Of a stretch of 64,000 nucleotides of DNA, positions 1 through 48,685 are shown in pieces. How positions within the stretch are numbered: position 1 is the stretch's first letter; every line of letters begins with the position of its first letter. This DNA comes from an uncultured virus (IMG/VR IMGVR_UViG_3300001255_000001) (Duplodnaviria; Heunggongvirae; Uroviricota; Caudoviricetes), in IMG/VR virus record IMGVR_UViG_3300001255_000001, positions 1 through 64,000 of that record; one strand, given 5' to 3'. Under the pieces are notes generated by a model. The model had not been told where the DNA came from, did not search any database, and was given only the letters and a program-made list of their open reading frames with translations. Made by a program: the position numbers and the translations under genes.

Positions 1-686
1 CTAACCTTGTCACAAAAAATGGAAAGCAAGCCGCAATTGCGAACACGTTCGGGCTCCCTGCAGGAAAGAATTATTCATGCCCTGGTGCCACTAGTATTTG
101 TGAGAGTGTTTGCTACGCAGGAAAACTCGAAAAGGTATTCCCAAGCGTTAAAGTAAATCTATTGCATAACTGGGAATTACTAAAAGACGCAGACGGTGAA
201 ACTATGGTGCGTCTACTTAATGAAATGATAATTGACTTCAAGGCTGATTGTGTAAAGAAAGACGCACCTATGCTATTCCGTATCCACTGGGACGGAGACT
301 TCTTCAATGATACTTATGCATATGCATGGAAAATAGTTATTGATAAGCATGAGGATGTTCAATTCTGGGTTTATACTCGTGTAAAGTCTGCGGCGCTTAT
401 TCTTAAGGATGTATCTAATCTATCGCTATACTATTCAACGGATGATGATAATAAAGAAATCGCATTCGACTTAAAAACTAATTCAAAAATCCGCCTTGCT
501 TATCTTGGTAAGACATTCGCTGCAACCGAAGACACAATGAAAGAATTGACTGGTAAGCCTGGTGCTAAGTGTCCTGAGAATATGAAGAGTATTCCACTTA
601 TCTCTAGCAATGGGTCCGCCTGCGTATCTTGTGGTCTATGCGTATATGGTAAAGCGGATATTAGATTTTCTGCGAGTAAAAAATAA
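1..686 (+). CDS. Gp88-like Cys-rich (radical-SAM-like) phage protein, 5' truncated by window edge
   Basis: Frame is open from base 3: FGLPAG..SCPGATSICESVCYAG, FRIHWDGDFF, FWVYTR and C-terminal CP..CVSCGLC motifs, as in the GP88 family. Confidence 0.7.
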   Translation, partial: NLVTKNGKQAAIANTFGLPAGKNYSCPGATSICESVCYAGKLEKVFPSVKVNLLHNWELLKDADGETMVRLLNEMIIDFKADCVKKDAPMLFRIHWDGDFFNDTYAYAWKIVIDKHEDVQFWVYTRVKSAALILKDVSNLSLYYSTDDDNKEIAFDLKTNSKIRLAYLGKTFAATEDTMKELTGKPGAKCPENMKSIPLISSNGSACVSCGLCVYGKADIRFSASKK

Positions 687-781
687 TGTATGAGGTTATT
701 GGTATGATTGGCGGATCTATGGTAATTCTTATATCGCTCCTGCCAATTTTATTAGCTGCATATGTAATATCTAAATTGTAA
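686..781 (+). CDS. 31-aa single-TM membrane peptide
   Basis: ATG overlaps the upstream TAA; MYEVIGMIGGSMVILISLLPILLAAYVISKL (own translation). Confidence 0.55.
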   Translation: MYEVIGMIGGSMVILISLLPILLAAYVISKL

Positions 782-824
782 CAGCGTGTCGGCTTGACAA
801 TGTCAAGCTGGCCCGCAATGTTGC

Positions 825-869
825 GGGGTTATCCACAGGTTTAAGGGGCTTATCCACAAGCCCCTGGAA
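825..869. promoter_or_regulatory. Tripartite motif GGG-N12-TTTAAG-N18-CTGGAA, copy 1, with two DnaA boxes (829-837, 850-858)
   Basis: Read directly; TTATCCACA occurs twice. Confidence 0.85.
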
Positions 870-872
870 TTA

Positions 873-888
873 TGTGAGATTTATCACA
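873..888. promoter_or_regulatory. CRP/GlxR-type box
   Basis: Perfect TGTGA-N6-TCACA. Confidence 0.7.
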
Positions 889-915
889 AGGCTCATGCGT
901 AAATAGATTAGGTAA

Positions 916-937
916 TGTCAGTGGGCTATGTTATAAT
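916..937 (+). promoter_or_regulatory. TGTCAG-N10-TATAAT promoter (further copies start at 1484, 1741, 2677, 3935, 4115, 6123, 7820)
   Basis: Eight copies with an identical 10-nt spacer, each upstream of an ATG. Confidence 0.85.
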
Positions 938-965
938 TCTCTTATCCAACAACGAAAGGCAATAA

Positions 966-1169
966 ATGAAAATAGAACACAACCTAAAGTTTGTAACTGA
1001 GTTTGCAGACGGACACCCAATAACTGCACGGGTAATGGCACTTGATGAGTCAATGCGTACTGAAATGCTTGAAGGTATGCTAAAGGATTTAGTAGGCTCT
1101 CGCTTGCAACCAATTCTTGATGAAATAAATGCCAATGGCTCATACGCAATTCTAAAGGTTGCTGAATAA
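966..1169 (+). CDS. hypothetical early protein
   Basis: ORF with promoter and CAACGAAAGG leader. Confidence 0.8.
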   Translation: MKIEHNLKFVTEFADGHPITARVMALDESMRTEMLEGMLKDLVGSRLQPILDEINANGSYAILKVAE

Positions 1170-1438
1170 TGGGAAGTGTAACAGCACTAGGTATTCAGGA
1201 CAGTGTGTTAGATTTAGAAACACAATTAGCCTATCACTTACAGGGTAATCACTATCCACCCGTTCCACTATCTATGGTACCAGTATGTATTCAGGCAATA
1301 GATTTTGCTTATGATGAAATGTGGGATGAAACTATTGAAATGCCTGATGGTATTTCTTATAAGGGTGAAACATGTGCGCCAGTATGGGCGATCATCGAGG
1401 CTCACCACTTACACTTTTGGCTACCTGAAAGTGACTAA
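1169..1438 (+). CDS. hypothetical early protein
   Basis: Coupled ORF; HLQGNHYPPVP and AHHLHFWL motifs. Confidence 0.8.
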   Translation: MGSVTALGIQDSVLDLETQLAYHLQGNHYPPVPLSMVPVCIQAIDFAYDEMWDETIEMPDGISYKGETCAPVWAIIEAHHLHFWLPESD

Positions 1439-1533
1439 GGTCACACAATAACTTTCTCAAATAATGAGATGGGGGTTGATAAATGTCAGCCCCCAATGCT
1501 ACAATACTACCCTACAAAGAAAAGAGGCAATAA

Positions 1534-1716
1534 ATGACAATACAAGATAAGTTGTATCAGGTTGGAGATTTATTCACTACCCTAAAGTCAAAAAAGACGG
1601 GCGTGATTAAAGAAATCCACCCACAAGCATCTGGCTCGGTGCGTGTGCTACTAGAAATGCCAACAAAGGAAACTCGCTGGACAACAGTATCAGCAAGCAC
1701 CCTAGCAGGTAATTAG
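1534..1716 (+). CDS. hypothetical small beta-rich (SH3-like) protein
   Basis: Own promoter and RBS; YQVGD...TGVIKEI pattern. Confidence 0.75.
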   Translation: MTIQDKLYQVGDLFTTLKSKKTGVIKEIHPQASGSVRVLLEMPTKETRWTTVSASTLAGN

Positions 1717-1801
1717 CATAGGGCAGGGGGGTCGCAGAAATGTCAGACCCTCCTGCTATACTACTCTAACAAACAACCAACCAACGAAAGAGAGAAAATA
1801 A

Positions 1802-2224
1802 ATGGCACGACAGAAAGCAATTAGCGTAAAGATAGCAACACCAAAGGTAATCAAGGCACTAGAAACTCGCTTGACAAAGTTAAATGCCGATTACGCATCA
1901 CAAGAAGCCAACGAAGCAAAGCACGAAAAGGCTTTAGAAAAGTGGCGCAAAGAAGTAGGAAAGTTCGCTATGGCTAATTTTGCTAAGGCAGAAAACTTCC
2001 GCACAAACTATCGCTCATGGAATAAGACACTTAATGTTGATTTCGATTTAACAGTTAATGAGTCAGACTTTCCTAAAGAGCCTGAGAAGGACTACGAAGT
2101 TCTCCACCGCCACTCATACAATGAGATGAAAGAGGAATTGGAAAACGCAATTCGTATTCTAAAGATGACAGATGAGGAAACAGTAAGCACAAGCACTTAC
2201 AATGCTATTGCTCGTTATCTCTAA
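1802..2224 (+). CDS. hypothetical early protein (coiled-coil)
   Basis: Own promoter and CCAACGAAAG leader. Confidence 0.85.
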   Translation: MARQKAISVKIATPKVIKALETRLTKLNADYASQEANEAKHEKALEKWRKEVGKFAMANFAKAENFRTNYRSWNKTLNVDFDLTVNESDFPKEPEKDYEVLHRHSYNEMKEELENAIRILKMTDEETVSTSTYNAIARYL

Positions 2225-2233
2225 ATAATCCAA

Positions 2234-2260
2234 CGACCTGAGTATGTCGCCAAACTGCTC
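2234..2260 (+). ncRNA. H-type pseudoknot RNA element, copy 1
   Basis: CGAC/GTCG stem; loop CTGAGTAT can pair with downstream TGCTC. Confidence 0.7.
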
Positions 2261-2295
2261 TCCCTTTTGGGACAACTACTAACAAAGGTAATACA

Positions 2296-2523
2296 ATGCG
2301 GTTCAAGATAGAAATGTATGACGAAGTAAAACAAAACGACTTAACAATTTATTCTGATGAAGGCTATGACAATGAAAGCCTAAAGGAATTAGTTTTCTCA
2401 AACTTAAAAAGATTTGACGGAAATGTTAAGGCTTTTGTTTATGATCAAAAAAATAAAAAGAAAACATCAGCAGCGTTCTTTCCAATGGAAACAGTAAACT
2501 ATGTAAAGTCCTTATCTAAGTGA
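2296..2523 (+). CDS. hypothetical protein
   Basis: ORF with AAAGGT RBS. Confidence 0.75.
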   Translation: MRFKIEMYDEVKQNDLTIYSDEGYDNESLKELVFSNLKRFDGNVKAFVYDQKNKKKTSAAFFPMETVNYVKSLSK

Positions 2524-2528
2524 AAGGT

Positions 2529-2548
2529 GGGGCAGCTAATTCTGCCCC
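2529..2548 (+). terminator. GC-rich hairpin after stop codon
   Basis: GGGGCAG-N6-CTGCCCC; no T-run. Confidence 0.5.
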
Positions 2549-2575
2549 GCCCAAGCTTGGCCCGCAATAATGTGC

Positions 2576-2638
2576 GGGGTTTTCCACAGGTTTAAGAGGG
2601 CCTGTGGATAACGCCTGGAATTTGTGAGATTACTCACA
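2576..2638. promoter_or_regulatory. Tripartite motif copy 2 with DnaA boxes (2580-2588, 2603-2611 reversed), followed by a perfect CRP-type box (2623-2638)
   Basis: TTTTCCACA, TGTGGATAA and TGTGA-GATTAC-TCACA read directly. Confidence 0.85.
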
Positions 2639-2728
2639 TGGATCAATTCGGACATATTGTAACTAATCATAGACAATGTCAGTGGGGTCTGTTATACTTA
2701 CAACTAACTAAACGAAAGGTAAAAATAT

Positions 2729-3736
2729 ATGGCTCACAATCTCGAAACCGAAAACGGCGAAGTTGCTTTTGCATTGCGTGGCGCACCTGCATGGCATAAT
2801 CTTGCTAATCGTATCTTCACACAAGATGAAGATGTTACTACTCAAATGATGTTAGATGAGGCAAAACTATCTAACTGGAATGTTCGTCTATCTCCATTGA
2901 CCGACCACATCTCAGATACATGGAATGATGTATCTAATGCTCAATTAGTTATTCGTGACAACCCATTCAATAGCGGAACTGATGTTCTTGCTACTGTTGG
3001 TAAGCGTTACAAGCCTGTGCAAAATGAAGAATTGTTTGCATTCGCAGATGCAATTCATGATGCCAATGCTGATTGCCGTTGGGAATCTGCTGGCTCACTT
3101 CGTAGCGGTAAGGTTGTTTTTGGTACTGTGGATATTCCTCGCACAATGGTGCTTGACCCACAAGGTGCAAATGATGAAACCAAGTTGTATCTAATTGTTT
3201 GGACATCACATGACGGGTCTGTTGCGGTTCAGGCTGCAGTTACCCCTGTTCGTGTAGTTTGCCAAAACACATTGAATCTTGCAATGCGTAATGCTAAGCA
3301 ATCTTTCAAGATTCGTCACACGCAATCTGTTGAAGGTCGCATTCAAGTAGCCCGCGAAACTCTTGGGCTTGCTCTTGGATACTTTGATGAATTTGAGAAA
3401 GAGGCTCAGGCTCTTTATTCTCAATCAATTACTGATGCTGAATTCTCAAAGTTAATTCAGACAATTTATCCTAAGCCAGATAAAGATTCTGCTAAGGTTG
3501 CGCTAACTAAGTGGGAGAATAAGGTTGTCCTTCTTGACAATCTTTATCATAACTCACCAACTAACGCTAACATCAAGGGAACTAAGTGGGGTGCGTTCAA
3601 TGCACTAACTGAACGCCTTGACTATTATCGTTCAGGTCGCGGAAATTCTGAAACACTTATGGCTGGTGCATCAGGGTTTGACCCAATTCTTACCGCAGAA
3701 AAAAATAAAATTAAGAAATTAATTTCTGCGTTTTAA
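2729..3736 (+). CDS. DUF932 / phage-plasmid-like protein
   Basis: PAWH, YKPVQNEELF, ESAGSL, SHDGS, TPVRVVCQNTL, RHT and GTKWGAFNALTE motifs. Confidence 0.9.
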   Translation: MAHNLETENGEVAFALRGAPAWHNLANRIFTQDEDVTTQMMLDEAKLSNWNVRLSPLTDHISDTWNDVSNAQLVIRDNPFNSGTDVLATVGKRYKPVQNEELFAFADAIHDANADCRWESAGSLRSGKVVFGTVDIPRTMVLDPQGANDETKLYLIVWTSHDGSVAVQAAVTPVRVVCQNTLNLAMRNAKQSFKIRHTQSVEGRIQVARETLGLALGYFDEFEKEAQALYSQSITDAEFSKLIQTIYPKPDKDSAKVALTKWENKVVLLDNLYHNSPTNANIKGTKWGAFNALTERLDYYRSGRGNSETLMAGASGFDPILTAEKNKIKKLISAF

Positions 3737-3743
3737 TAAATAA

Positions 3744-3771
3744 ATTCCTGAGCATGAATAAAAACTGCTCA
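3744..3771 (+). ncRNA. H-type pseudoknot RNA element, copy 2
   Basis: ATTC/GAAT stem; loop CTGAGCAT can pair with TGCTCA. Confidence 0.7.
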
Positions 3772-3783
3772 CAATTTTTTCTA

Positions 3784-3857
3784 GGTCCATTAGCTCAGTT
3801 GGTTAGAGCGCTACCCTGTCACGGTAGAGGTCGACGGTTCAAGTCCGTTATGGATCG
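3784..3857 (+). tRNA. tRNA-Asp(GTC)
   Basis: Cloverleaf; anticodon arm CTACC-CTGTCAC-GGTAG; GGTTCAAGTCC T arm. Confidence 0.95.
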
Positions 3858-3877
3858 CAAATCGCCCGCAATATTTA

Positions 3878-3922
3878 GGGACAAAAAAGTGTGTTAAGTG
3901 TCACATAAAAAAATCCCTGGAA
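3878..3922. promoter_or_regulatory. Tripartite motif copy 3, overlapping a 1-mismatch CRP-type box (3890-3905)
   Basis: GGG-N12-GTTAAG-N18-CTGGAA. Confidence 0.8.
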
Positions 3923-3963
3923 TCTATAGACAAATGTCAGTGGGACCCTGTATAATTCTCTAC

Positions 3964-4581
3964 ATGACCAACGAACTAGTATCAAGCGTATATACATTTG
4001 TCTGTGACCCAGATGAATGCGATTCTTTAATTCAATTAACATCATCTGATGGATTTGGTTTTCCTTCAGGTGTGACAGAACTCACATGCCCTTGCGGACG
4101 TAAGACCACCTTATTGTCAGTCGAGCATGCTACAATTACACCAACAACAACGGAAGAGGTAAAAATGGAAACAACTACAGACAATCACTACATGACACGA
4201 GAATTCCTTGAGTCACAGTTAGTAGATAACAAAGCCCGCATTACACAGTTAGAAGAGCACATCCAGCGTATAACTCAGCGTGATTATGCAACTGCAGGAA
4301 CTCTAAGCAAATTGCGTGATGACATGAAGGTATTCACACTCGAAGGCCTTGATGACGAATCTCTTACAGAATTTCAAGCAGAAGAAATTGCTGGCATCTG
4401 TGGATTTGAACTAACAAATGAGTTTGAACTAGAAGTAACAGTTCTATATTCAATTACAGTTAATGCTCGTGATGAAGAGAGTGCACATAATCTAATTCAT
4501 GATATTGATTTTGACACCGTGTCTTATGACTCAGACGGTATTAGTTGGCTATCATCATCTGTAGATAGAATTGAGAACTAA
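3964..4581 (+). CDS. hypothetical protein with N-terminal Cys (Zn-ribbon-like) segment; leaderless start at 3964, in-frame internal start at 4165
   Basis: ATG 7 nt after TATAAT; a second promoter and RBS lie inside the ORF. Confidence 0.75.
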   Translation: MTNELVSSVYTFVCDPDECDSLIQLTSSDGFGFPSGVTELTCPCGRKTTLLSVEHATITPTTTEEVKMETTTDNHYMTREFLESQLVDNKARITQLEEHIQRITQRDYATAGTLSKLRDDMKVFTLEGLDDESLTEFQAEEIAGICGFELTNEFELEVTVLYSITVNARDEESAHNLIHDIDFDTVSYDSDGISWLSSSVDRIEN

Positions 4582-4901
4582 TGTTAAAAGAAGGAGAAAA
4601 CATTGTTTACCTTAAATTAAGAATTCAAAATGAAATAAAAGATTTAAGTTTAAATCATCCTGAATTATTAGAAGAGTATAAGCAAGATGCAATTAAATCT
4701 ATTTTTAATTCAGCTATCCTTAAAGAAACTTTGTCCGTTAAAGAGTTTAGGGATTTAGTGTCAACAGTACGACCTGATTTTTATGAGGGGTATACGATTG
4801 AAGATGCAGAAGCGGAATGGGAATCTATAAAAACAGGCATGATTATTGTTTCTCTTTTTGTTGTGATAGTTGGCGCTCTTATACTTAAGTGGGTGTTCTA
4901 A
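4581..4901 (+). CDS. hypothetical protein with C-terminal TM helix
   Basis: Coupled ORF; hydrophobic C-terminus. Confidence 0.7.
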   Translation: MLKEGENIVYLKLRIQNEIKDLSLNHPELLEEYKQDAIKSIFNSAILKETLSVKEFRDLVSTVRPDFYEGYTIEDAEAEWESIKTGMIIVSLFVVIVGALILKWVF

Positions 4902-5104
4902 TGTACTTTGAACTTACCGCTCCATCTCGTGTAGCCTTTGCGAGGGCCATTTGGGATGCAGAAATAACTGGACTAGACCCTGAAGCAATGAGTGCATTGA
5001 CATTCAACATAGGAACTGGTAGTATTGAGAAAGTAAGTAGGATTCGTGATAAGTATAACTTAATTGAATCTTATGTAAGCGACAGTAAAACTACAGGATA
5101 CTAG
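4901..5104 (+). CDS. hypothetical protein
   Basis: TAATG-coupled ORF. Confidence 0.7.
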   Translation: MYFELTAPSRVAFARAIWDAEITGLDPEAMSALTFNIGTGSIEKVSRIRDKYNLIESYVSDSKTTGY

Positions 5105-5112
5105 GAGATAAA

Positions 5113-5259
5113 ATGTCAGACTATAAAGATGGTTTTGAAGATGGGTACAAGTTTGCCCGTGAAGAAATTATAGAAAAACTATCAGAGATTGATATCGCAG
5201 ATATTGATACATGGATTCTTGATCGTCTATCTGACATGATAGAAGGCGGAACGCTATGA
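5113..5259 (+). CDS. 48-aa acidic protein
   Basis: AGGAG RBS; MSDYKDGFEDGYKFAREEII... (own translation). Confidence 0.7.
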   Translation: MSDYKDGFEDGYKFAREEIIEKLSEIDIADIDTWILDRLSDMIEGGTL

Positions 5260-5453
5260 ACGAATGGGTTGGGTGCGATAAGTGTAACTCAGTAGTACCT
5301 GCAATGTATTTAATTAAAATGGTTAGCGGAGAGCTTTCTTTCTGTGGACACCACTTTAATAAGTTCAAGCCTAGTCTTGACAAAATCGCTTACGAAGTGA
5401 TAGAATTAAACAAAAAGGAAGAAGTACCTCAACTAGTAGAAATGGCGGAATAA
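5256..5453 (+). CDS. small Zn-binding protein
   Basis: CDKC...FCGHH. Confidence 0.7.
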   Translation: MNEWVGCDKCNSVVPAMYLIKMVSGELSFCGHHFNKFKPSLDKIAYEVIELNKKEEVPQLVEMAE

Positions 5454-5454
5454 A

Positions 5455-5856
5455 ATGGGAGATAGAGCAAACTTCGGATTTAAACAATCCAATGGAGAAA
5501 CAATTGTGCTATACGGACACTGGGCTGGACATGGAATGTTAGAGCGCTTAGCAGATGCTGTTGAAGCAGCACGTTCTAGGTGGGGAGATGAATCATATGC
5601 TACCCGCATTGCGGTTTCGCATTTAGTTGGAGAACAATGGCAAGATACAACTGGATGGGGATTATCTGTTAATAACATCCTAGACAACGAGCACAAGATT
5701 CCTGTGATTGACTGGAATACACAAACGTTTTCACTGCACGAAGAGGCGCCTTGGTCCGAGTCGACAGAATATAAGGTCCGTGGAATGCAAGACGAGCCCA
5801 TATTCAAAATGACATTGGATTCATTTATTAATAAGTACTCAAGGGTTAATGCATAA
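5455..5856 (+). CDS. hypothetical phage protein
   Basis: MGDRANF..LYGHWAG..RWGDESYATRI. Confidence 0.8.
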   Translation: MGDRANFGFKQSNGETIVLYGHWAGHGMLERLADAVEAARSRWGDESYATRIAVSHLVGEQWQDTTGWGLSVNNILDNEHKIPVIDWNTQTFSLHEEAPWSESTEYKVRGMQDEPIFKMTLDSFINKYSRVNA

Positions 5857-5868
5857 TTAATCTAAGGG

Positions 5869-5992
5869 TGCCCCTATAGTCATTAATGGCCAGGGGTTAA
5901 ATAAAGCAGAGTTCTTTTACTTTCGTTGGTGAACCTCTAGCAGCCTATGTAAAACCCCAGTTATGGAATAAGCCCCTACAGCTGGGGTTTTT
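5869..5992 (+). ncRNA. candidate three-hairpin small RNA with loop antisense to early-gene leaders
   Basis: Hairpins at 5871-5896 and 5906-5941 (loop TTTTACTTTCGTTGGT); terminator at 5951-5992. Confidence 0.55.
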
Positions 5993-6013
5993 GCATGGCC
6001 CGCAAAAGACTAA

Positions 6014-6077
6014 GGGTAATATATTTCTTTTACGGTGTCAATATGAAATCGCCTGGAATTTTGTGATCTTGACCACA
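6014..6077. promoter_or_regulatory. Tripartite motif copy 4 plus 1-mismatch CRP-type box (6062-6077)
   Basis: GGG-N12-TTTACG-N18-CTGGAA; TGTGA-N6-CCACA. Confidence 0.8.
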
Positions 6078-6171
6078 TGCATACAAAATGTGGTGTGAAA
6101 CACACCCAAATAGTATTCCATTTGTCAGTGGTCCAATGTATAATTATCACATATCAACGAAAGGATATAAA

Positions 6172-6906
6172 ATGCCAAATTGGGTATTTAATGGATTAAC
6201 AATTGAAGGTAATCCTGAGCAAGTAAAATCTTTAATCAAGCAGATGAATAAGCCATTTGTTTATTCTATTACTGCATTAGGTGATTTATCATATGATGTC
6301 AAGCAGACTAAGTATATTAATCCTATCTTTGCTTTTCATAATATCTATAACTATAGAGATGCTGGTATTACTGATGAGGTATATCATGGACAGCCTCCTC
6401 GTTCCACCGATTTTTCTCAGGCAATGAAGTTTGAAACCAATGACTGGTACAACTTTAATGTGCGTGAGTGGGGAACCAAGTGGGATGTTGCTGTAGCAGA
6501 GGATAATAAGTATCCTGATACAACTATTGAAGAAGCAGAAAATGGCGAGAACTATGTAGTTCATTACAATTTTAATACTGCATGGTCACGACCTCTTGGC
6601 GCTATTGAAAAACTATCTGCACAATACCCAACACTACTCTTTACTTTATCATATGAGGAAGAGACAGGTTGGGGTGGAGAAATGGAATTCCTCCGTGGTG
6701 AAGTTATCTCAGAATCAGAATACGATAATATGTGCCGTGATTGTGATGCAACTGACCAAATGGAATACTGCGAGAATGACTGCGGTGAAATCTGTAGCAA
6801 CTGCAACTGGCTTGGCGAGGCAGACCTAGAGGCTGTCGCAATTTGTCAGACCCATAAGATATACTTAGACACTAAAGTACCCGAATATAGAAAGGCGGAA
6901 GCATAA
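6172..6906 (+). CDS. DUF1281/YubB ferredoxin-like domain protein with Cys-rich C-terminus
   Basis: MPNW..N.L.I.G, DWYNF...WGTKWD, FNTAWS.P and YEE motifs; start moved to the RBS-preceded ATG. Confidence 0.8.
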   Translation: MPNWVFNGLTIEGNPEQVKSLIKQMNKPFVYSITALGDLSYDVKQTKYINPIFAFHNIYNYRDAGITDEVYHGQPPRSTDFSQAMKFETNDWYNFNVREWGTKWDVAVAEDNKYPDTTIEEAENGENYVVHYNFNTAWSRPLGAIEKLSAQYPTLLFTLSYEEETGWGGEMEFLRGEVISESEYDNMCRDCDATDQMEYCENDCGEICSNCNWLGEADLEAVAICQTHKIYLDTKVPEYRKAEA

Positions 6907-7118
6907 TGGAAGCATTTACAGATACAGTAGGAGAACATATCCTTGGAGCAATTCAAGTAGATATTGAGCAACATCTCTTTGAACAATGGAACAGCAAAAA
7001 TTTAGATGAGGGTAGCGATTATGCTGAATATATGTTCATGCAATTTGCTCCTGATAGCCTAAAGCAATCATACAATGAGTATTATGGCTATATTGAGGGA
7101 GATGAGTTTCTATTATGA
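6906..7118 (+). CDS. small acidic protein
   Basis: Coupled ORF. Confidence 0.75.
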   Translation: MEAFTDTVGEHILGAIQVDIEQHLFEQWNSKNLDEGSDYAEYMFMQFAPDSLKQSYNEYYGYIEGDEFLL

Positions 7119-7261
7119 TTACATCACAAGAACTACTTGACTATATGTATGATGACAACTTAAGTCATTTTGACGACAGAGACACATCAGATGATTGTGA
7201 TTGTTATATTCACATAACACTTAATACTATGCTTAAATACATGGAGGCAATAGAATGTTAG
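7115..7261 (+). CDS. 48-aa acidic protein
   Basis: ATGA overlap; MITSQELLDYMYDDNLSHFDDRDTSDDCDC... (own translation). Confidence 0.65.
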   Translation: MITSQELLDYMYDDNLSHFDDRDTSDDCDCYIHITLNTMLKYMEAIEC

Positions 7262-7431
7262 GATATACTAAAACAGATATAGATGAAATGGGGAATGCTA
7301 TGCATGACGCCAAGCTTTTCTATATTCTTAAATCAGATATCGTTCGTGTTGATGAAGATCCAATTGTGGACGGGCTACTAAAAGCACAAGACTTTCTACA
7401 GGGCTTATGGGCAGAAGGGTACTTTGACTAA
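7255..7431 (+). CDS. 58-aa hypothetical protein
   Basis: GGAGG RBS; MLGYTKTDIDEM...LQGLWAEGYFD (own translation). Confidence 0.7.
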   Translation: MLGYTKTDIDEMGNAMHDAKLFYILKSDIVRVDEDPIVDGLLKAQDFLQGLWAEGYFD

Positions 7432-7667
7432 TGAAGTTTGGCGATGCTATGGTTCTTGCTCTACTTATTCAAATCCCGTTGATTCCCGTGGTTGCTTTTG
7501 TTGATTGGATTAATGCCCCTGATAAACCAGATAAAGTAGTTTGTTATTATCAGGGAGGGTTTGGACATTTTGATGACCCAACTGTACACAAATACACAAC
7601 AATTGGAAACTGTTCAATAACTCATAAACAAAGATACTTTCTGAAAAAGGAGATAATTAATGACTAA
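7431..7667 (+). CDS. small membrane-anchored protein
   Basis: Coupled ORF; N-terminal hydrophobic helix. Confidence 0.65.
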   Translation: MKFGDAMVLALLIQIPLIPVVAFVDWINAPDKPDKVVCYYQGGFGHFDDPTVHKYTTIGNCSITHKQRYFLKKEIIND

Positions 7668-7869
7668 GTCATCTTATTTCCTGGAGTATATGAAGTTACA
7701 TCTAATTAGTCTTAATCAAGATTGGGAAGATTCTAAAAATAGCGTACCTTTAAATGAAGATGAATATGACCCTTCAGATGATTACTATGTAGGAGCAACT
7801 GAGGCTGTTGAACATTTATTGTCAGTGGCTACTGATATAATGAATTCTTCTAACGAAAGGTATGAATAA
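7660..7869 (+). CDS. small acidic protein
   Basis: AAGGAG RBS. Confidence 0.7.
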   Translation: MTKSSYFLEYMKLHLISLNQDWEDSKNSVPLNEDEYDPSDDYYVGATEAVEHLLSVATDIMNSSNERYE

Positions 7870-8072
7870 TGAATATAACATCTAGAGAAGTTACTTATCG
7901 TTCCGCCGTTGAACAAATCTTTTTTGAGGACGGGACAGAATTGGTAATCACAGTCGGTGCTCCTGCCGAAGGCGGAGGAGATATCGATATTAAATATGAT
8001 TGGGTAGAAGGAAAGCCTGATTGGGCAAACAACTTAAATGAATCAACACTAGTGAACTATGAGGTAATCTAA
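7869..8072 (+). CDS. hypothetical protein
   Basis: Promoter at 7820 and AACGAAAGG leader. Confidence 0.7.
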   Translation: MNITSREVTYRSAVEQIFFEDGTELVITVGAPAEGGGDIDIKYDWVEGKPDWANNLNESTLVNYEVI

Positions 8073-8344
8073 TGAATGCAGAAGACATTGGGCTCCCACC
8101 TCATTTGCAACGCATGGTCAATGCAGGTGTTAGTGGATTAGATATAATGCACGGAGAACTAAAGAATCTAATGTTAATTGCTGAGCAAGACCTAGCAAGC
8201 GCATTAGAACAGGAGGAATTGTCTGAAGAGGCAATGGATTCCATGGTCCGCACAGAATGTGAAGGGCGCCTAGACATGCTAGTAGAACTATATAATCTAA
8301 CATACCAACTATCATTTGCGATTGGAGCACGGGATGAAGCCTGA
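8072..8344 (+). CDS. acidic hypothetical protein
   Basis: GAGGT RBS; coupled ORF. Confidence 0.75.
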   Translation: MNAEDIGLPPHLQRMVNAGVSGLDIMHGELKNLMLIAEQDLASALEQEELSEEAMDSMVRTECEGRLDMLVELYNLTYQLSFAIGARDEA

Positions 8345-8648
8345 CGATAAAGATAAACTAAACAAATGTTTAGAGATTCTAGACAGCACTGACTTAGGTC
8401 TATCATTAGTTTGGTTGTGGACATGGTCGACAATTGACAATATCTTAAATGATGACAACTACAAGGCCAAGGTAACCAAGGACCAGATGTGGGACCACCT
8501 CTGCGAGGCTGTGGAGGCTGGCCAAGGGTTCTCTTTGGAGTGGGGAGCAGAACAACATCAAGAAGAAGTTTTAGACTGGATGTTAAACAGGGACTACATC
8601 GTAGACCCCGAAGATGAAGATGAGGAGGACGAAGATGAAGATGAGTGA
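8334..8648 (+). CDS. acidic hypothetical protein with poly-D/E tail
   Basis: Ends ...DPEDEDEEDEDEDE. Confidence 0.75.
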   Translation: MKPDDKDKLNKCLEILDSTDLGLSLVWLWTWSTIDNILNDDNYKAKVTKDQMWDHLCEAVEAGQGFSLEWGAEQHQEEVLDWMLNRDYIVDPEDEDEEDEDEDE

Positions 8649-8775
8649 TGACTATATTAATGATCAATTAAACAAGGCTCAACAATTGCTATGGGGTGGC
8701 AGCGAAACTGAAAACATCGAAGCCCATAACATTATATCTAAACTAATTAAAGACAGAATAGAACAAGTTTCATAA
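8641..8775 (+). CDS. 44-aa hypothetical protein
   Basis: MSDDYINDQLNKAQQLLWGGSETENIEAHNII... (own translation). Confidence 0.6.
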   Translation: MSDDYINDQLNKAQQLLWGGSETENIEAHNIISKLIKDRIEQVS

Positions 8776-8820
8776 GGGCAGAAAAAATGGTTTACGGCGA
8801 CTATTTACAATTCCGTGGAA
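8776..8820. promoter_or_regulatory. Tripartite motif copy 5, overlapping a TTTACA-N17-TATAAT promoter
   Basis: GGG-N12-TTTACG-N18-GTGGAA. Confidence 0.75.
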
Positions 8821-8866
8821 AGTTGCTATAATTAACAAAACAACTATCTCTTGAAAGGGGATTAAA

Positions 8867-9016
8867 ATGACAACAAAGCGTGAATATCTAAAGCAGCAGG
8901 GCATTACAGTTGGTGTGCGTGGGCGCTTCTCAGGAGCAGCCAAGGTAGCTCTAGCTGAGGCGGAGGCCAAGGGCGTTAAGTTTACTGCAGAGGCACCTGT
9001 CAAAAAGGCGAAGTAG
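8867..9016 (+). CDS. Lsr2-like DNA-binding domain-only protein (49 aa)
   Basis: GAAAGGGG RBS; KREYLKQQGITVGVRGRFS resembles the Lsr2 C-terminal RGR motif; not in the ORF track. Confidence 0.7.
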   Translation: MTTKREYLKQQGITVGVRGRFSGAAKVALAEAEAKGVKFTAEAPVKKAK

Positions 9017-9025
9017 TTCTGGGAC

Positions 9026-9068
9026 GGGAGTCAGGGCTTCGTTGGTCCTTGACTCCCTCCTTTATTTT
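9026..9068 (+). terminator. hairpin/terminator with loop CTTCGTTGGT
   Basis: GGGAGTCAGGG/CCTTGACTCCC stem followed by a T-rich tract. Confidence 0.7.
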
Positions 9069-9102
9069 TGGTACAATCAATAGTTAAAGAACAGGGGCGG
9101 AC

Positions 9103-9378
9103 ATGGCAAAGACATCATCAATCGAAACAAAGGCGGCAGAAAAAGTACTGGAGGCTATGGATAGTCATTGGTTTAATCCAACTATCATGGCACGGGAATT
9201 AGTCAATGGTTGTGGCTATTATACTCAATCTAAGGTAATGGAACTAGTAGTAGAAATTATCAAACAAACGGCGGGACAGTTTGATAATGCGTGGGAAGAA
9301 GGGGTTACATCAGAAGCCCTATTCATGGCAGATAGACTAAATGACTACATTGCTAACTTTGAACCAATAGAGGCATAG
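9103..9378 (+). CDS. hypothetical protein, last + strand gene
   Basis: ORF with upstream TGGTACAAT. Confidence 0.75.
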   Translation: MAKTSSIETKAAEKVLEAMDSHWFNPTIMARELVNGCGYYTQSKVMELVVEIIKQTAGQFDNAWEEGVTSEALFMADRLNDYIANFEPIEA

Positions 9379-9442
9379 CCAACATATAGATCAAGACCGA
9401 AAGGATATATTTATCTAAGTATTACTCTTGATCATATAGCCC

Positions 9443-9485
9443 AAGATATCCATAGGATCTACACAGGTCCTGTGGATATCTTTTT
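9443..9485 (+). terminator. strong intrinsic terminator ending the early block
   Basis: 18-bp stem AAGATATCCATAGGATCT/AGGTCCTGTGGATATCTT plus T-run. Confidence 0.8.
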
Positions 9486-9499
9486 ATGTATGGGCATGT

Positions 9500-9712
9500 G
9501 GGCAAAATTATCCGTTTACGACCAAGCTTAAAAAATCGCTGGAATATTTGGCAGAATATAATAAAATGAATATAATATCTATTAAAACATATAATGAATT
9601 AGGCATAATATAGCCAGAATCTGTCAGAATTTATATCAAAATTTTATATAAAATATGTTGACAATGTGGGCCAAATATGCCTTTTACGACGCTATTGACA
9701 AATTCGCTGGAA
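9500..9712. promoter_or_regulatory. Tripartite motif copies 6 (9500-9544) and 7 (9668-9712) in the AT-rich gap
   Basis: GGG-N12-TTTACG-N18-CTGGAA twice. Confidence 0.8.
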
Positions 9713-9975
9713 TATGCGCTATGTCTCATATAAGTCCATATGGCCCTATTGACATTACGACCATCATTATGATAAGCTCAATTACATAGTAATGTTTATC
9801 TTAGTATAACTATAGTATATGGATCTGAATCTATAGTATATATTCTCCACTATACTCCACTTTACTCCACATTAGAAGCCTTCTAGAGGCTCATACAAGG
9901 GAGATAAAGGGGAGGGGGATATAGGAGTTAGAGACCATATTGCTATATTTTCTAGAGCTTTATCCTTGGTCTATA

Positions 9976-10332
9976 TTACTTGCTATGGACTAATTGACAT
10001 TCCTTGCATACATGATCTACAAATATCTTAGTTGACAAGGATGTATGTTCTATCTTAGTCTTGGGATTAGTTCTCTTGAATATATCTCTTAATAGTTCTA
10101 TTGGTGAAGTTCTTACTTCTTCTGGTAGCCCGCCGTGTTTGTGAAGAATTTTCAATAGGATGCCTGCGATGAATATGTCATCGCTAAATGCCATCCAGGG
10201 AAATAGTATATCAAATGGGTCAATTGGGACAGATAGGTACATAACGCACAAAACGGCTATGATCTTTATATGTCTAGGACATCTGTCAAATTGAGCTTTA
10301 TATGGCTTAAATACCTCATTAAGGTTCTTCAT
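9976..10332 (-). CDS. DUF1232/YkvA-like membrane protein
   Basis: YLSVPIDPFD..P....DDI pattern. Confidence 0.6.
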   Translation of the reverse strand: MKNLNEVFKPYKAQFDRCPRHIKIIAVLCVMYLSVPIDPFDILFPWMAFSDDIFIAGILLKILHKHGGLPEEVRTSPIELLRDIFKRTNPKTKIEHTSLSTKIFVDHVCKECQLVHSK

Positions 10333-14290: not shown

Positions 14291-14546
14291 AACTATCCCA
14301 TATACTTTAAATGAAAATGTTTTTCACAAACGTCTATAACTTTGCCAGTTTTAGGCTCTGGCTCTGAATACTTGCTTTCTGATGGACAATAAAAGCATGG
14401 CGGAATATTTGTGTTCATATGTATATTATACCAGATTTACTTCAATCATATTTAGACACCTGTCGCACACATCATAAGTTTTGCCAGTAAATGGGCAAGC
14501 ACCTGCCCTCTTAAGCTTGTGTCCAACAATTTTACAATAAACTGAT

Positions 14547-34308: not shown

Positions 34309-34897
34309 AGTTAAACCCTTTTGGAACTTTTATTTTTTTAAAAATTTTATTTGAATGAAAATATCTTATATCGCTTTTTAATTCTTTGACTTCATGAAAG
34401 CATATATCTTCGGCGCTATGTATAATCAAATCTCCTTTTTTTGGGCTGTAGGATACTCCTTGATTGATATAGCTAATCTCTGCGCCATCGAAATCATTAA
34501 AGTACAATACAATACCAGCAACGGTATCTTCAGCTAAATCAAATTCTTCTAGATCTTTTGCAATCTTGCTTGCTTCTCTTGCAGGCAAAGAGTCATGGTT
34601 ATCGGAGTGCGGGGCCCCTCTGTATCCTTTTCTCATTACAGATACACCACGATCTGAGCCGAGGTAGTATCCATCTTCAAGCAAGCTGATTACCCTGTTG
34701 TCTACCTCAATAATTTTTTCTAGCCAAACAACAGACCTTTCGTAGAATGTTATTGTTTCATTTTTATTAGTCCACCAATTATCTTCTGATATACTTTCTG
34801 ACTCTAACACTATTTGATTACAGTCATCATCAGATACAAAACCATGAAAAACATATGAGTCTTTACATAACTCCACGAAGCCACTCTTATCAAACAT
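34298..34897 (-). CDS. 2OG-Fe(II) oxygenase between the terminase subunits
   Basis: HSD...LYFNDFDG...HEV...R. Confidence 0.82.
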   Translation of the reverse strand: MFDKSGFVELCKDSYVFHGFVSDDDCNQIVLESESISEDNWWTNKNETITFYERSVVWLEKIIEVDNRVISLLEDGYYLGSDRGVSVMRKGYRGAPHSDNHDSLPAREASKIAKDLEEFDLAEDTVAGIVLYFNDFDGAEISYINQGVSYSPKKGDLIIHSAEDICFHEVKELKSDIRYFHSNKIFKKIKVPKGFNYAT

Positions 34898-35429
34898 CTG
34901 AAGTTTTTTCTAAAATTATAATTGGCTCTACAATACCAGTTATTTGAGAAAGCCTTTTTGCTACTTCTATTTTACAATGGTTGCAGCTTGAAGTAACTTC
35001 TTTTAATATGCCAACAAGCATCTCTTGCTTTCTTTCTGTTTCCAATATCTGAGATGCCATTTCATTATTTTCAAGTACGCCGACTGACTGAAGCATAGCA
35101 ATTCTTTTTGTCTCTATGTCTGCAATAAGCTTAAGTGTTCCAGACTTAACGTTTAGTTGCCCTTGTGTATCTGCATCCTCAACCGTTTTCCATGCTTCTT
35201 TAATTAACATATCATAATGTTGATCTGCTCCCAGCAAAGCCTCTCTGGCCCTGTCCCTAACATTTGTATCATTATGGACAATAGACTTCCACTCATCTAT
35301 ATGCTCAAGAACTTCTTTACGGGTAAGCCCAGTAATAGATGCTATTTGGGTGGCAGAATTACCCTTTAATAGCTCAGAAACGACTCTGTTCATTTTGTCG
35401 AATTGTACTGCTGGCTCTATTTCGCTCAT
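34890..35429 (-). CDS. putative terminase small subunit (HTH + helical)
   Basis: N-terminal HTH (SATQIASITGLTRKEV); position upstream of terL. Confidence 0.6.
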   Translation of the reverse strand: MSEIEPAVQFDKMNRVVSELLKGNSATQIASITGLTRKEVLEHIDEWKSIVHNDTNVRDRAREALLGADQHYDMLIKEAWKTVEDADTQGQLNVKSGTLKLIADIETKRIAMLQSVGVLENNEMASQILETERKQEMLVGILKEVTSSCNHCKIEVAKRLSQITGIVEPIIILEKTSDV

Positions 35430-48096: not shown

Positions 48097-48203
48097 TTGT
48101 TGTGCTCCTTAATATGTCTATTCAATGTAAAGTGTGCAAAACCAGATCTTACCTCTATGTCTTTTTTACATATAGGACAAAAAATAGTTCTGTTGCTTGC
48201 CAT
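48093..48203 (-). CDS. 36-aa C2H2-type zinc finger
   Basis: CPICKK...LNRHIKEH; coupled on both sides (own translation). Confidence 0.65.
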   Translation of the reverse strand: MASNRTIFCPICKKDIEVRSGFAHFTLNRHIKEHNK

Positions 48204-48685
48204 TAATCCGCCTTCCAAACTGGTACGAACCCGCTATCTGTCTTAGTATACAATACAAAGCTGTGTTTGAGAAGAGCCAATAATTCTGCCTTTGATGGCA
48301 TATTATTAGAATGACCAGAGTCTAAAATATATTGATGTAAATCTAATATATCTTCTTCGCTAAACATATACTTAGACCAGCCTTCTTTAGAAAGGCTTCC
48401 TATTGGATATATTTTTTGAGGTGTCTTAATCTTTTCCTCTAATATATAATCCTGTATTGTCACTCTGTGCTTATTCAACATCTCTGCAACTTGTACAACG
48501 CTGTATGCGTTGCCCATATGCTTATTGACTTCTGAGTAAGGATACAGAACCCGTTTTGCATCTGGATAGCACCAAGCAATTACTTGGTCTTTGGCTCTTG
48601 ATGAGCTAATGACCTTATGTATTTTCCCGTTTAAGAAGAAATACCGTATCGCTTTAATTGATCTTCCTCTATCTTTTCCAGCCAT
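48203..48685 (-). CDS. HTH (MerR/excisionase-like) DNA-binding protein
   Basis: YSVVQVAEMLNKHRVTI...FSEEDI. Confidence 0.75.
   Translation of the reverse strand: MAGKDRGRSIKAIRYFFLNGKIHKVISSSRAKDQVIAWCYPDAKRVLYPYSEVNKHMGNAYSVVQVAEMLNKHRVTIQDYILEEKIKTPQKIYPIGSLSKEGWSKYMFSEEDILDLHQYILDSGHSNNMPSKAELLALLKHSFVLYTKTDSGFVPVWKAD

Follow-up and report, generated by a model that had tools for sequence, protein, structure and literature searches.

In phage T7, the promoters phiOL and phiOR are oriented sites near the genome ends that are linked to replication or repeat duplication, and the long terminal repeat of SPO1 carries repeated promoter boxes upstream of its early promoters. In phages with repeats of 10–14 kb (T5, SPO1, and the Streptomyces BE phages), DNA entry, shut-off of the first genes, and regeneration of the repeat are poorly understood. 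The injection-stop (iss) region of T5 combines a long repeat, a gene-free boundary region, and DnaA boxes, and genetic analysis of the stop signal was unsuccessful for decades (10.1101/866236). The PeSL elements of RB49 and phi1 are described as sigma70 promoters with a stem-loop, about 100 bp of homology, and mini-circle formation (PMC2839356). The promoters of sigmaShbA read CGTAAC-N16-CGATGA, sigmaI has the -10 CGWA, and a -10 starting with CG together with a T-tract past the -35 is a feature of promoters read by extracytoplasmic function (ECF) sigma factors (PMC12019637). PafBC is an adaptor altering sigmaA specificity in actinobacteria, with the motif tGTCgg-N10-tA-N3-T (PMC8635444). Here, we analyzed a 64,000-nt stretch (the window) of an uncultured lake phage, IMG/VR record IMGVR_UViG_3300001255_000001. 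In its early block, a preliminary description made from the letters alone had noticed seven copies of a three-box element, GGG-N12-KTTAMG-N18-STGGAA. The present analysis adds the mapping of a terminal repeat and a tested link to cultured phages.

The element is real, and its core is partly shared with cultured Streptomyces phages. Its sequence pattern suggests that it likely marks the docking site of one phage-directed protein machine that would switch off early genes, and this machine is probably an RNA polymerase firing backwards. All seven copies were present on the + strand with 0 mismatches (Table 1). Allowing one or two mismatches added 0 copies, and shuffled sequences gave means of 0.03 and 0.43 with a maximum of 3, indicating a frequency well above background. 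Each two-box sub-pattern alone returned the same seven + strand positions. With a weight matrix trained on relatives, near-identical copies included, the seven copies scored 38–46 against 13.9 for the top of 20 shuffles, and no other site in the 72,296-nt contig scored >8. All copies were intergenic, as had been claimed, copy 5 beginning immediately 3' of a stop codon. The finer wording of the preliminary description held in part. The 12-nt spacer is fixed, but the 18-nt spacer is constant in this genome only and is 17 or 18 nt elsewhere. GCCCGCAA, reported upstream of copies 1–4, is present with starts at 811, 2560, 3864, and 5998, but its placement is not rigid because 14 or 16 nt separate its start from GGG. 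The spacers are mostly dissimilar (5–17 of 30 positions identical between copies), but copies 6 and 7 (17) match each other like copies 1 and 2 (16), the pair that had been singled out. On the minus strand, TTCCAG-N18-CGTAAA is literal in copies 4, 6, and 7, whereas copies 1–3 have CTTAAA or CTTAAC and copy 5 has TTCCAC. Strong hairpins precede copies 1, 2, 4, and 6. An Rfam scan of the window returned tRNAs only, with no family over the seven copies. No description of the motif appeared in literature listings, which did not extend to supplements, subscription papers, or PhagesDB notes, and the BE1 announcement does not mention it (PMC5764925).

The element was conserved in 80 related lake loci (1.32 Mb). 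A matrix trained on the same loci gave a copy in 80/80. The spacer between the middle and third boxes was 17 nt at 182 sites and 18 nt at 160, with at most 2 sites at any other length; both lengths occurred within 61 of the 80 loci, which ruled out spacer length as a genome-specific trait. The GGG distance peaked at 12, and the other strand held 4 sites in total. The extended consensus was TRNGGG-N12-(T/G/C)TTA(C/A)G-N17/18-CTG(G/A)AA-TTT, the second spacer containing an A-tract and ending in CC, and an inverted CCCRCA was frequently found upstream. In 19/19 long genomes, which had been selected for containing a match or a relative, 133/133 matches lay on one strand and in one block, the terminal-repeat block described below; CGTAAA was always on the replication-gene strand, and the reversed-pattern control gave 0. 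At orthologous places, the boxes were conserved at 0.87–0.93 and the spacers at 0.61–0.71. The lake copies had no shared fold (copies 4–7 folded no better than shuffles) and no covariation, the top excess in 66 distinct copies being 0.23 against shuffled maxima up to 0.22. These results favored a protein footprint over simple duplication, as had been proposed.

Gene-unit order was conserved among the relatives, and variation mostly concerned single genes within units. The GP88 gene with its element was the lone unit gained or lost, and it was relocated in one relative. This unit, together with one assembly joint connecting copies 1 and 2, is what a PeSL-like recombination handle shuffling early gene cassettes would predict, a possibility raised in the preliminary description. 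However, the other units keep their order, 9 of 10 listed joints lie away from elements, and the shared bases number only 15 and are scattered. Because unit order is conserved, shuffling finds little support, and we give it hardly any credence. A late-promoter role in the lake phages was rejected, as no copies were found beyond the repeat: none in the 72-kb contig, none over about 92 kb of a complete relative of 115 kb, and, for the exact pattern, none in the 19 genomes. As an exception, 9 of 60 loci carry a copy whose third box is a variant; it lies at a convergent junction, 1.8–2.7 kb outside the repeat, and many of the 60 loci may fall short of that point. A + strand promoter reading was also dismissed, since no -10 was conserved at a constant distance. 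Within coding sequence near 14,440 of relative L166 (homolog of window 7869–8072), there is a weak exact three-box match, and a copy is found in the same long unit of L178, L187, and L201. The match may split the longest inter-copy gap or be due to chance. RNA contigs from two runs of one study covered early genes and left the elements uncovered; they are unstranded and sparse.

A long direct terminal repeat of about 13.7 kb makes up the early block of this lake phage, which is a relative of the Streptomyces BE and BK phages. Genes for DnaE, DnaB, primase, RecA, terminase, and tail proteins are present in the window. Its large terminase is 58–64% identical to those of BE and BK phages among the matches listed, and its DUF932 protein matches genes found twice per BE genome, within the BE terminal repeat. 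Among sequencing runs containing at least half of the sequence, 20 of 24 rows were lake or freshwater metagenomes. In single contigs with no differing letters, the depth was 80 at 8,884–9,915 and 40.7 past 10,184 in one run, and in a second it changed from 24.5 to 12–13.4 across the right limit of the block. In the near-identical relative L135, one run showed a rise in depth from 52.6 to 99–110 near 3,520, and the picture there was less clean in three other runs. The change was thus about twofold (ratios 1.8–2.1) in two runs at the right limit and in one run at the left. At 3,425 of L135, we found TGTATG|ATACA, which was present in 66 of the 68 loci extending that far. Mildred21 and Jay2Jay have this sequence as their right end, Samisti12 has it with one change, and it matches the BillNye end. 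The ends of BE phages were mapped by read pile-ups (PMC5764925), and their terminal repeats were confirmed in passages of PMC7650747 and PMC8612146 that do not give the motif. The length of about 13.7 kb follows from the depth doubling and from the left limit of the repeat in L135, which has the sequence of mapped BE ends. With the copies placed against the genome termini, copy 7 lies at most ~200 nt from the second end, a distance that is approximate.

Several further features were noted around the ends. In the window at 9845–9925, the CTCCAC repeats (Table 1) are followed by AAGCC..TAGAGGCT and GGGAGGGGGATA, conserved up to the point where relatives diverge, and L135 has a similar AGCC..TAGAGGCTC near 900–1000, at the convergent junction. 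The end motif at L135:3400–3470 consists of AAATGTTA..TTTT..TGTATG|ATACA with GATAGTGCGCCCA about 30 nt inside; it is common to lake, BE, and BK phages and predicts one physical end in uncultured members. The left genome end of Samisti12 begins GTCCGGG. 'TACG' at the right repeat end in Samisti12 was dropped because two other BE phages do not keep it. For Jay2Jay (L133), the repeat offset and end motif gave a terminal repeat of 11,438 bp; the table in PMC5764925 lists 10,778 bp, identical to the Paradiddles figure. At 10329–39444, the window carries at least five 2OG-Fe(II) oxygenase genes, JmjC, glutathione peroxidase, AhpC, and an AhpD-like gene. An attempt to obtain the host through AhpC gave none; its matches were mostly proteobacterial, the best cellular ones being mostly Burkholderiales.

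The core shared with cultured phages was the two-box pattern TTYCRG-N16-18-CGTAAA on the main strand, detected with a two-box matrix trained on lake copies only. BE phages (5/5) had 20 matches, all on the main strand and ≤800 bp from the left end, with none on the other strand and none away from the left end in 72 kb. In three BK phages, there were 19 main-strand and 6 other-strand matches in 132 kb. Main-strand CGTAAA of the BK1 phages was intergenic in 13/22 and 10/16 cases (intergenic share 0.16 and 0.19), and other-strand CGTAAA in 0/7 and 2/13. The BK sites lie just 3' of stop codons, ahead of sense genes or tRNAs and often within a GC hairpin; one BK1 copy ends 7–8 nt ahead of tRNA-Gln in both genomes. 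The second spacer in the Streptomyces phages was 16–18 nt. Since the element is antisense to local genes in the repeats of lake and BE phages but lies in the sense direction in BK phages, its orientation follows genome polarity, not local transcription. In the right arms of Phredrick and Annadreamy (L312, L313), many CGTAAA hairpins are followed 7–10 nt on by AAGCTT, often with a TA...T hexamer, and in two cases CGTAAA begins right at a tRNA 3' end. In Samisti12 (L129, 1000–10000), most BE early promoters are preceded by another palindrome, about TGTCCGGGCCCGGACA.

Several of the BK copies form GGGTTC-GTAAA-GRACCC stems just past stop codons, as would be expected if the element acted in main-strand RNA, with a GUAAA-loop hairpin read by an antiterminator or nuclease in the manner of boxB. 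The 66 lake copies without covariation and the shuffle-like folding of copies 4–7 argue against such a signal, which we consider very unlikely.

In the stretches covered, tandem copies lie ~120–550 nt from the sole DnaA cluster in 4/4 Streptomyces phages. In four of five BE phages, the left end coincides with the edge of a hexamer resembling the third box, and in two of five CTTACG begins 28 nt from the end, both loose likenesses. The site might accordingly bind a phage replication or maturation protein, such as an initiator or small terminase, instead of polymerase; the oriented copies would then initiate replication, bring about duplication of the long repeat, or define where the final packaging cut is made. 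Besides these neighborhoods, such a role would suit the confinement of the element to the terminal repeat, the restriction of the BE matches to the left end, and a helix-turn-helix (HTH) candidate encoded beside DnaB. It leaves the phasing with early promoters (below) and the dispersed sense copies of BK unexplained, the left-end array was not seen in four short-repeat relatives, and the best-conserved end carries its own, different motif. We regard this explanation as possible but somewhat unlikely. Entry, packaging, or replication, named as alternatives in the preliminary description, gained weight because the block is a terminal repeat and tandem copies adjoin the genome end or DnaA clusters.

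Sites resembling those of host factors are nested in the element. We labeled DnaA-type and CRP-type sites by consensus motifs. The contig has three perfect DnaA-type boxes, all within copies 1 and 2, and across the 80 loci 394 of 470 such boxes lie inside copies, that is, in 2% of the DNA. A DnaA, CRP, GACAC, or -35 motif is contained in 35 of the 66 distinct copies. The element follows one early unit at its 3' end and precedes the next early promoter. Nine PafBC-type sites were found in 916–7841, with three matches elsewhere in the contig; these nine early promoters fit the PafBC motif, the first variable g always being A. Measured from the third box, the next + strand -10 lies at distances that cluster at 6, 27, 37, 48, 72, 81, 101, 122, and 143 nt. 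At a period of 10.5 bp, helical phasing gave R 0.40 for 52 slot-distance values and R 0.65 (empirical p 0.002) for 15 clusters, picked by eye with rare values omitted. A 49-aa protein (window 8867–9016), encoded by the first gene past copy 5 in relatives, partially matches the Lsr2-like family and has an RGR motif; from its sequence, it is possibly a stand-alone DNA-binding domain acting as a counter-silencer.

Table 1 Positions of the element copies and of associated features in the window.
Feature	Position	Strand	Remark
Copy 1	825..869	+	Contains two DnaA-type boxes (829-837, 850-858); an inverted CCCGCA half-site precedes it, from 811
Copy 2	2576..2620	+	Middle box between two inverted DnaA-type boxes (2580-2588, 2603-2611)
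Copy 3	3878..3922	+	19 nt past tRNA-Asp; CRP-like palindrome 3890-3905 covers the middle box
Copy 4	6014..6058	+	Downstream of a terminator-like hairpin with a T run
Copy 5	8776..8820	+	Overlaps the + strand sigmaA-type promoter of the Lsr2-like gene
Copy 6	9500..9544	+	Beyond the final early gene and a long hairpin; no early gene downstream
Copy 7	9668..9712	+	Closest copy to the inferred physical genome end
Long direct terminal repeat, part	1..9900		3,846 nt further left in L135; right limit approximate, ~9,700-9,925
Three CTCCAC repeats, 10-nt period	9845..9870	+	Near the inferred end; at least two retained in 41/42 relatives
CRP-type palindrome	873..888		3 nt past copy 1
CRP-type palindrome	2623..2638		2 nt past copy 2
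CRP-type site	6062..6077		3 nt past copy 4
PafBC-type early promoter, TGTCAG-N10-TATAAT	916..937	+	Downstream of copy 1
PafBC-type promoter, DUF932 gene	2677..2698	+	Downstream of copy 2
PafBC-type promoter	3935..3956	+	Downstream of copy 3
PafBC-type promoter	6123..6144	+	Downstream of copy 4
SigmaA-type promoter, Lsr2-like gene	-35 TTTACA 8804-8809, -10 TATAAT 8827-8832	+	
Candidate reader, 160-aa protein	48203..48685	-	Three genes upstream of DnaB; conserved in cultured relatives
Second candidate reader, HTH protein	34890..35429	-	Two genes upstream of the large terminase

The tRNA-Asp gene at 3784–3858 is on the early strand inside the terminal repeat, and the other five tRNAs are on the main strand.

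A plain operator would also be expected to show one copy per early unit, nested host sites, overlap with a sigmaA promoter, and helical phase. In that case, the three boxes would be bound by a phage repressor or DNA-shaping protein that tunes or shuts the early promoters with no antisense transcription. This seems doubtful, as no early gene lies downstream of copies 6 and 7 or of the BE arrays, the orientation is set by the genome and not by the local promoter, and an asymmetric site with a spacer varying by plus or minus 1 nt is unusual for an operator. The DnaA boxes, the long repeat, and a gene-free region at one repeat boundary, as described for T5 (10.1101/866236), invite a role in DNA entry, through inward genome-pulling promoters like those of T7 or a DnaA-dependent stop like the T5 iss. 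The BE arrays face inward from the left end, resembling T7 early promoters (PMC6042481). We think entry improbable, given the four short-repeat relatives lacking the left-end array. Moreover, an A1/A2 label was absent among 24 early proteins scanned, no direct A1 or A2 search being made, and the T5 DnaA model is itself in silico only.

The reading that we favor, though tentatively and with the odds somewhat against it, is that the element is a promoter-shaped site read by a phage-adapted RNA polymerase and mutually exclusive with the early promoters. It builds on what was observed of spacing tolerance, polarity, the sense position in BK phages, nesting, and phase. The second spacer of 17 or 18 nt, and of 16–18 nt in the Streptomyces phages, implies the tolerance of a -35/-10 pair, and the element logo has a -10-like box beginning with CG and a T-tract past the -35-like box. 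The antisense -35/-10 promoter of the preliminary description is thus upheld in its geometry (17/18 spacing, and sense position ahead of BK genes), but no sigma factor to match it was found in the five genomes scanned.

From these observations, we infer the following course, including an adaptor, antisense transcripts, exclusion of early promoters, and a role in replication. The main-strand promoter would consist of a -35-like TTYCAG, 17–18 nt, and a -10-like CGTAAA, with CCC fixed 12 nt beyond, and host RNA polymerase would read it only once a phage factor alters its specificity. Early in infection, DnaA, a CRP-type protein, and sigmaA polymerase with PafBC may occupy the spacers and neighboring promoters and so mask the site. 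Later, a phage protein, for which the best candidate is the 160-aa Tudor-like/MerR-HTH protein, would load polymerase onto the opposite strand. This polymerase would displace the host factors and fire against the upstream early unit, acting as an early-off switch. At the tandem copies by the genome end and DnaA clusters, replication or repeat duplication could draw on such transcripts or on opened DNA, as at phiOL/phiOR of T7, and in BK phages the two-box core would be an ordinary sense promoter of right-arm genes.

A number of results weigh against a promoter-shaped site. The GGG box is missing from the Streptomyces phages, and an invariant CCC 12 nt beyond a -10 is unusual. No minus-strand purine bias was seen at the expected start positions, and no copy stands ahead of main-strand genes in the lake genomes. 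Tandem copies are merely 35–57 nt apart. Two BillNye copies end 10 nt ahead of an ATG, so that a transcript starting there would cut the ribosome site. A second, smaller set of promoter distances (13 values) had the same phase but p 0.13. Sigma region 2 (PF04542) was found in 0/5 genomes, and matches to the region-4 HTH (PF04545) were sub-threshold only, in 4/5 genomes. The consensus sequences of ShbA, SigD, SigR, HrdB, and sigmaI, those given in PMC12019637, did not match. The recognition helix of the 160-aa protein is unchanged across the CTGGAA/CTGAAA switch, and the Z score of its Tudor-likeness is within the range reached by common folds.

Candidate readers were sought among the phage proteins. 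No sigma or polymerase label was found among 41 further proteins of a complete relative. The full pattern in actinomycete-group genomes was at background (0/7 and 4/201, versus controls of 7 and 2), and the true host may differ. The relatives of the 160-aa protein comprise 127 Streptomyces and 9 Rhodococcus phage records. Its predicted structure (pLDDT 80.6) contains a MerR-type HTH, with a middling best Z of 6.5, and a small beta-barrel with a weak resemblance (Z 4.2–4.7) to the polymerase-binding Tudor domains of UvrD and CarD. A PDB sequence search with its alignment gave no match, and Foldseek none at E 0.001. Covariation of this protein with the box-3 variant was rejected: two columns separated the variants, none in the recognition helix, and control proteins did equally. 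Its tree required two box-3 label changes, the same as that of DnaB. On the strength of the model, the protein is a candidate only for reading the element. The second candidate is probably the small terminase. A fuller version, in which the Tudor/MerR-HTH adaptor turns host polymerase round on the repeat, evicting DnaA, CRP, and PafBC-driven early transcription and, at the tandem arrays by the DnaA boxes and genome end, priming replication or duplication of the 11–14 kb repeat, is unlikely. If true, it would establish a new class of promoter and offer a first handle, at the sequence level, on the running of such long repeats. The nesting of host replication and cAMP-type sites in a phage site suggests that early expression in this abundant lake phage may be tied to host state. 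Function is testable now because the core occurs in cultured, plaque-forming Streptomyces phages with mapped ends, whereas the lake phage is uncultured.

Compared with known systems, the element resembles ECF promoters (PMC12019637) in two boxes 16–18 nt apart, a -10 starting with CG, and a T-tract past the -35; two hexamers at this spacing, the mark of sigma70-family (ECF-type) promoters, are present. It differs in that CGTAAC is the -35 of ShbA, whereas CGTAAA would be the -10 of the element, and in its third fixed box. PafBC (PMC8635444) offers a precedent for an adaptor of sigmaA specificity; its motif fits the neighboring + strand early promoters, but not the boxes of the element. Like the PeSLs, the copies are repeated intergenic elements among small early genes, near hairpins and promoters, but they share 15 scattered bases, lack the sigma70 consensus plus stem-loop conserved over ~100 bp, and leave unit order conserved (compared with PMC2839356). 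The conserved, covarying stem of boxB/nut-type sites was not found in the lake copies, whereas BK copies form stems. With the T5 iss (10.1101/866236), the locus shares a long direct terminal repeat with clustered DnaA boxes, fixed while spacers vary, and a gene-free region at the repeat boundary. It departs from that region in placing a three-box asymmetric site about ten times along the repeat and in showing no A1/A2-labeled gene among 24–25 early window proteins, which were not searched directly with A1 or A2. The T7 phiOL/phiOR promoters and the SPO1 boxes are alike in position and orientation, although a phage RNA polymerase as in T7 was not seen among the genes scanned here. Judged by its sequence pattern, the element appears to belong with the oriented regulatory or maturation sites of long phage terminal repeats, and it provides a precise, oriented target in long-repeat phages.

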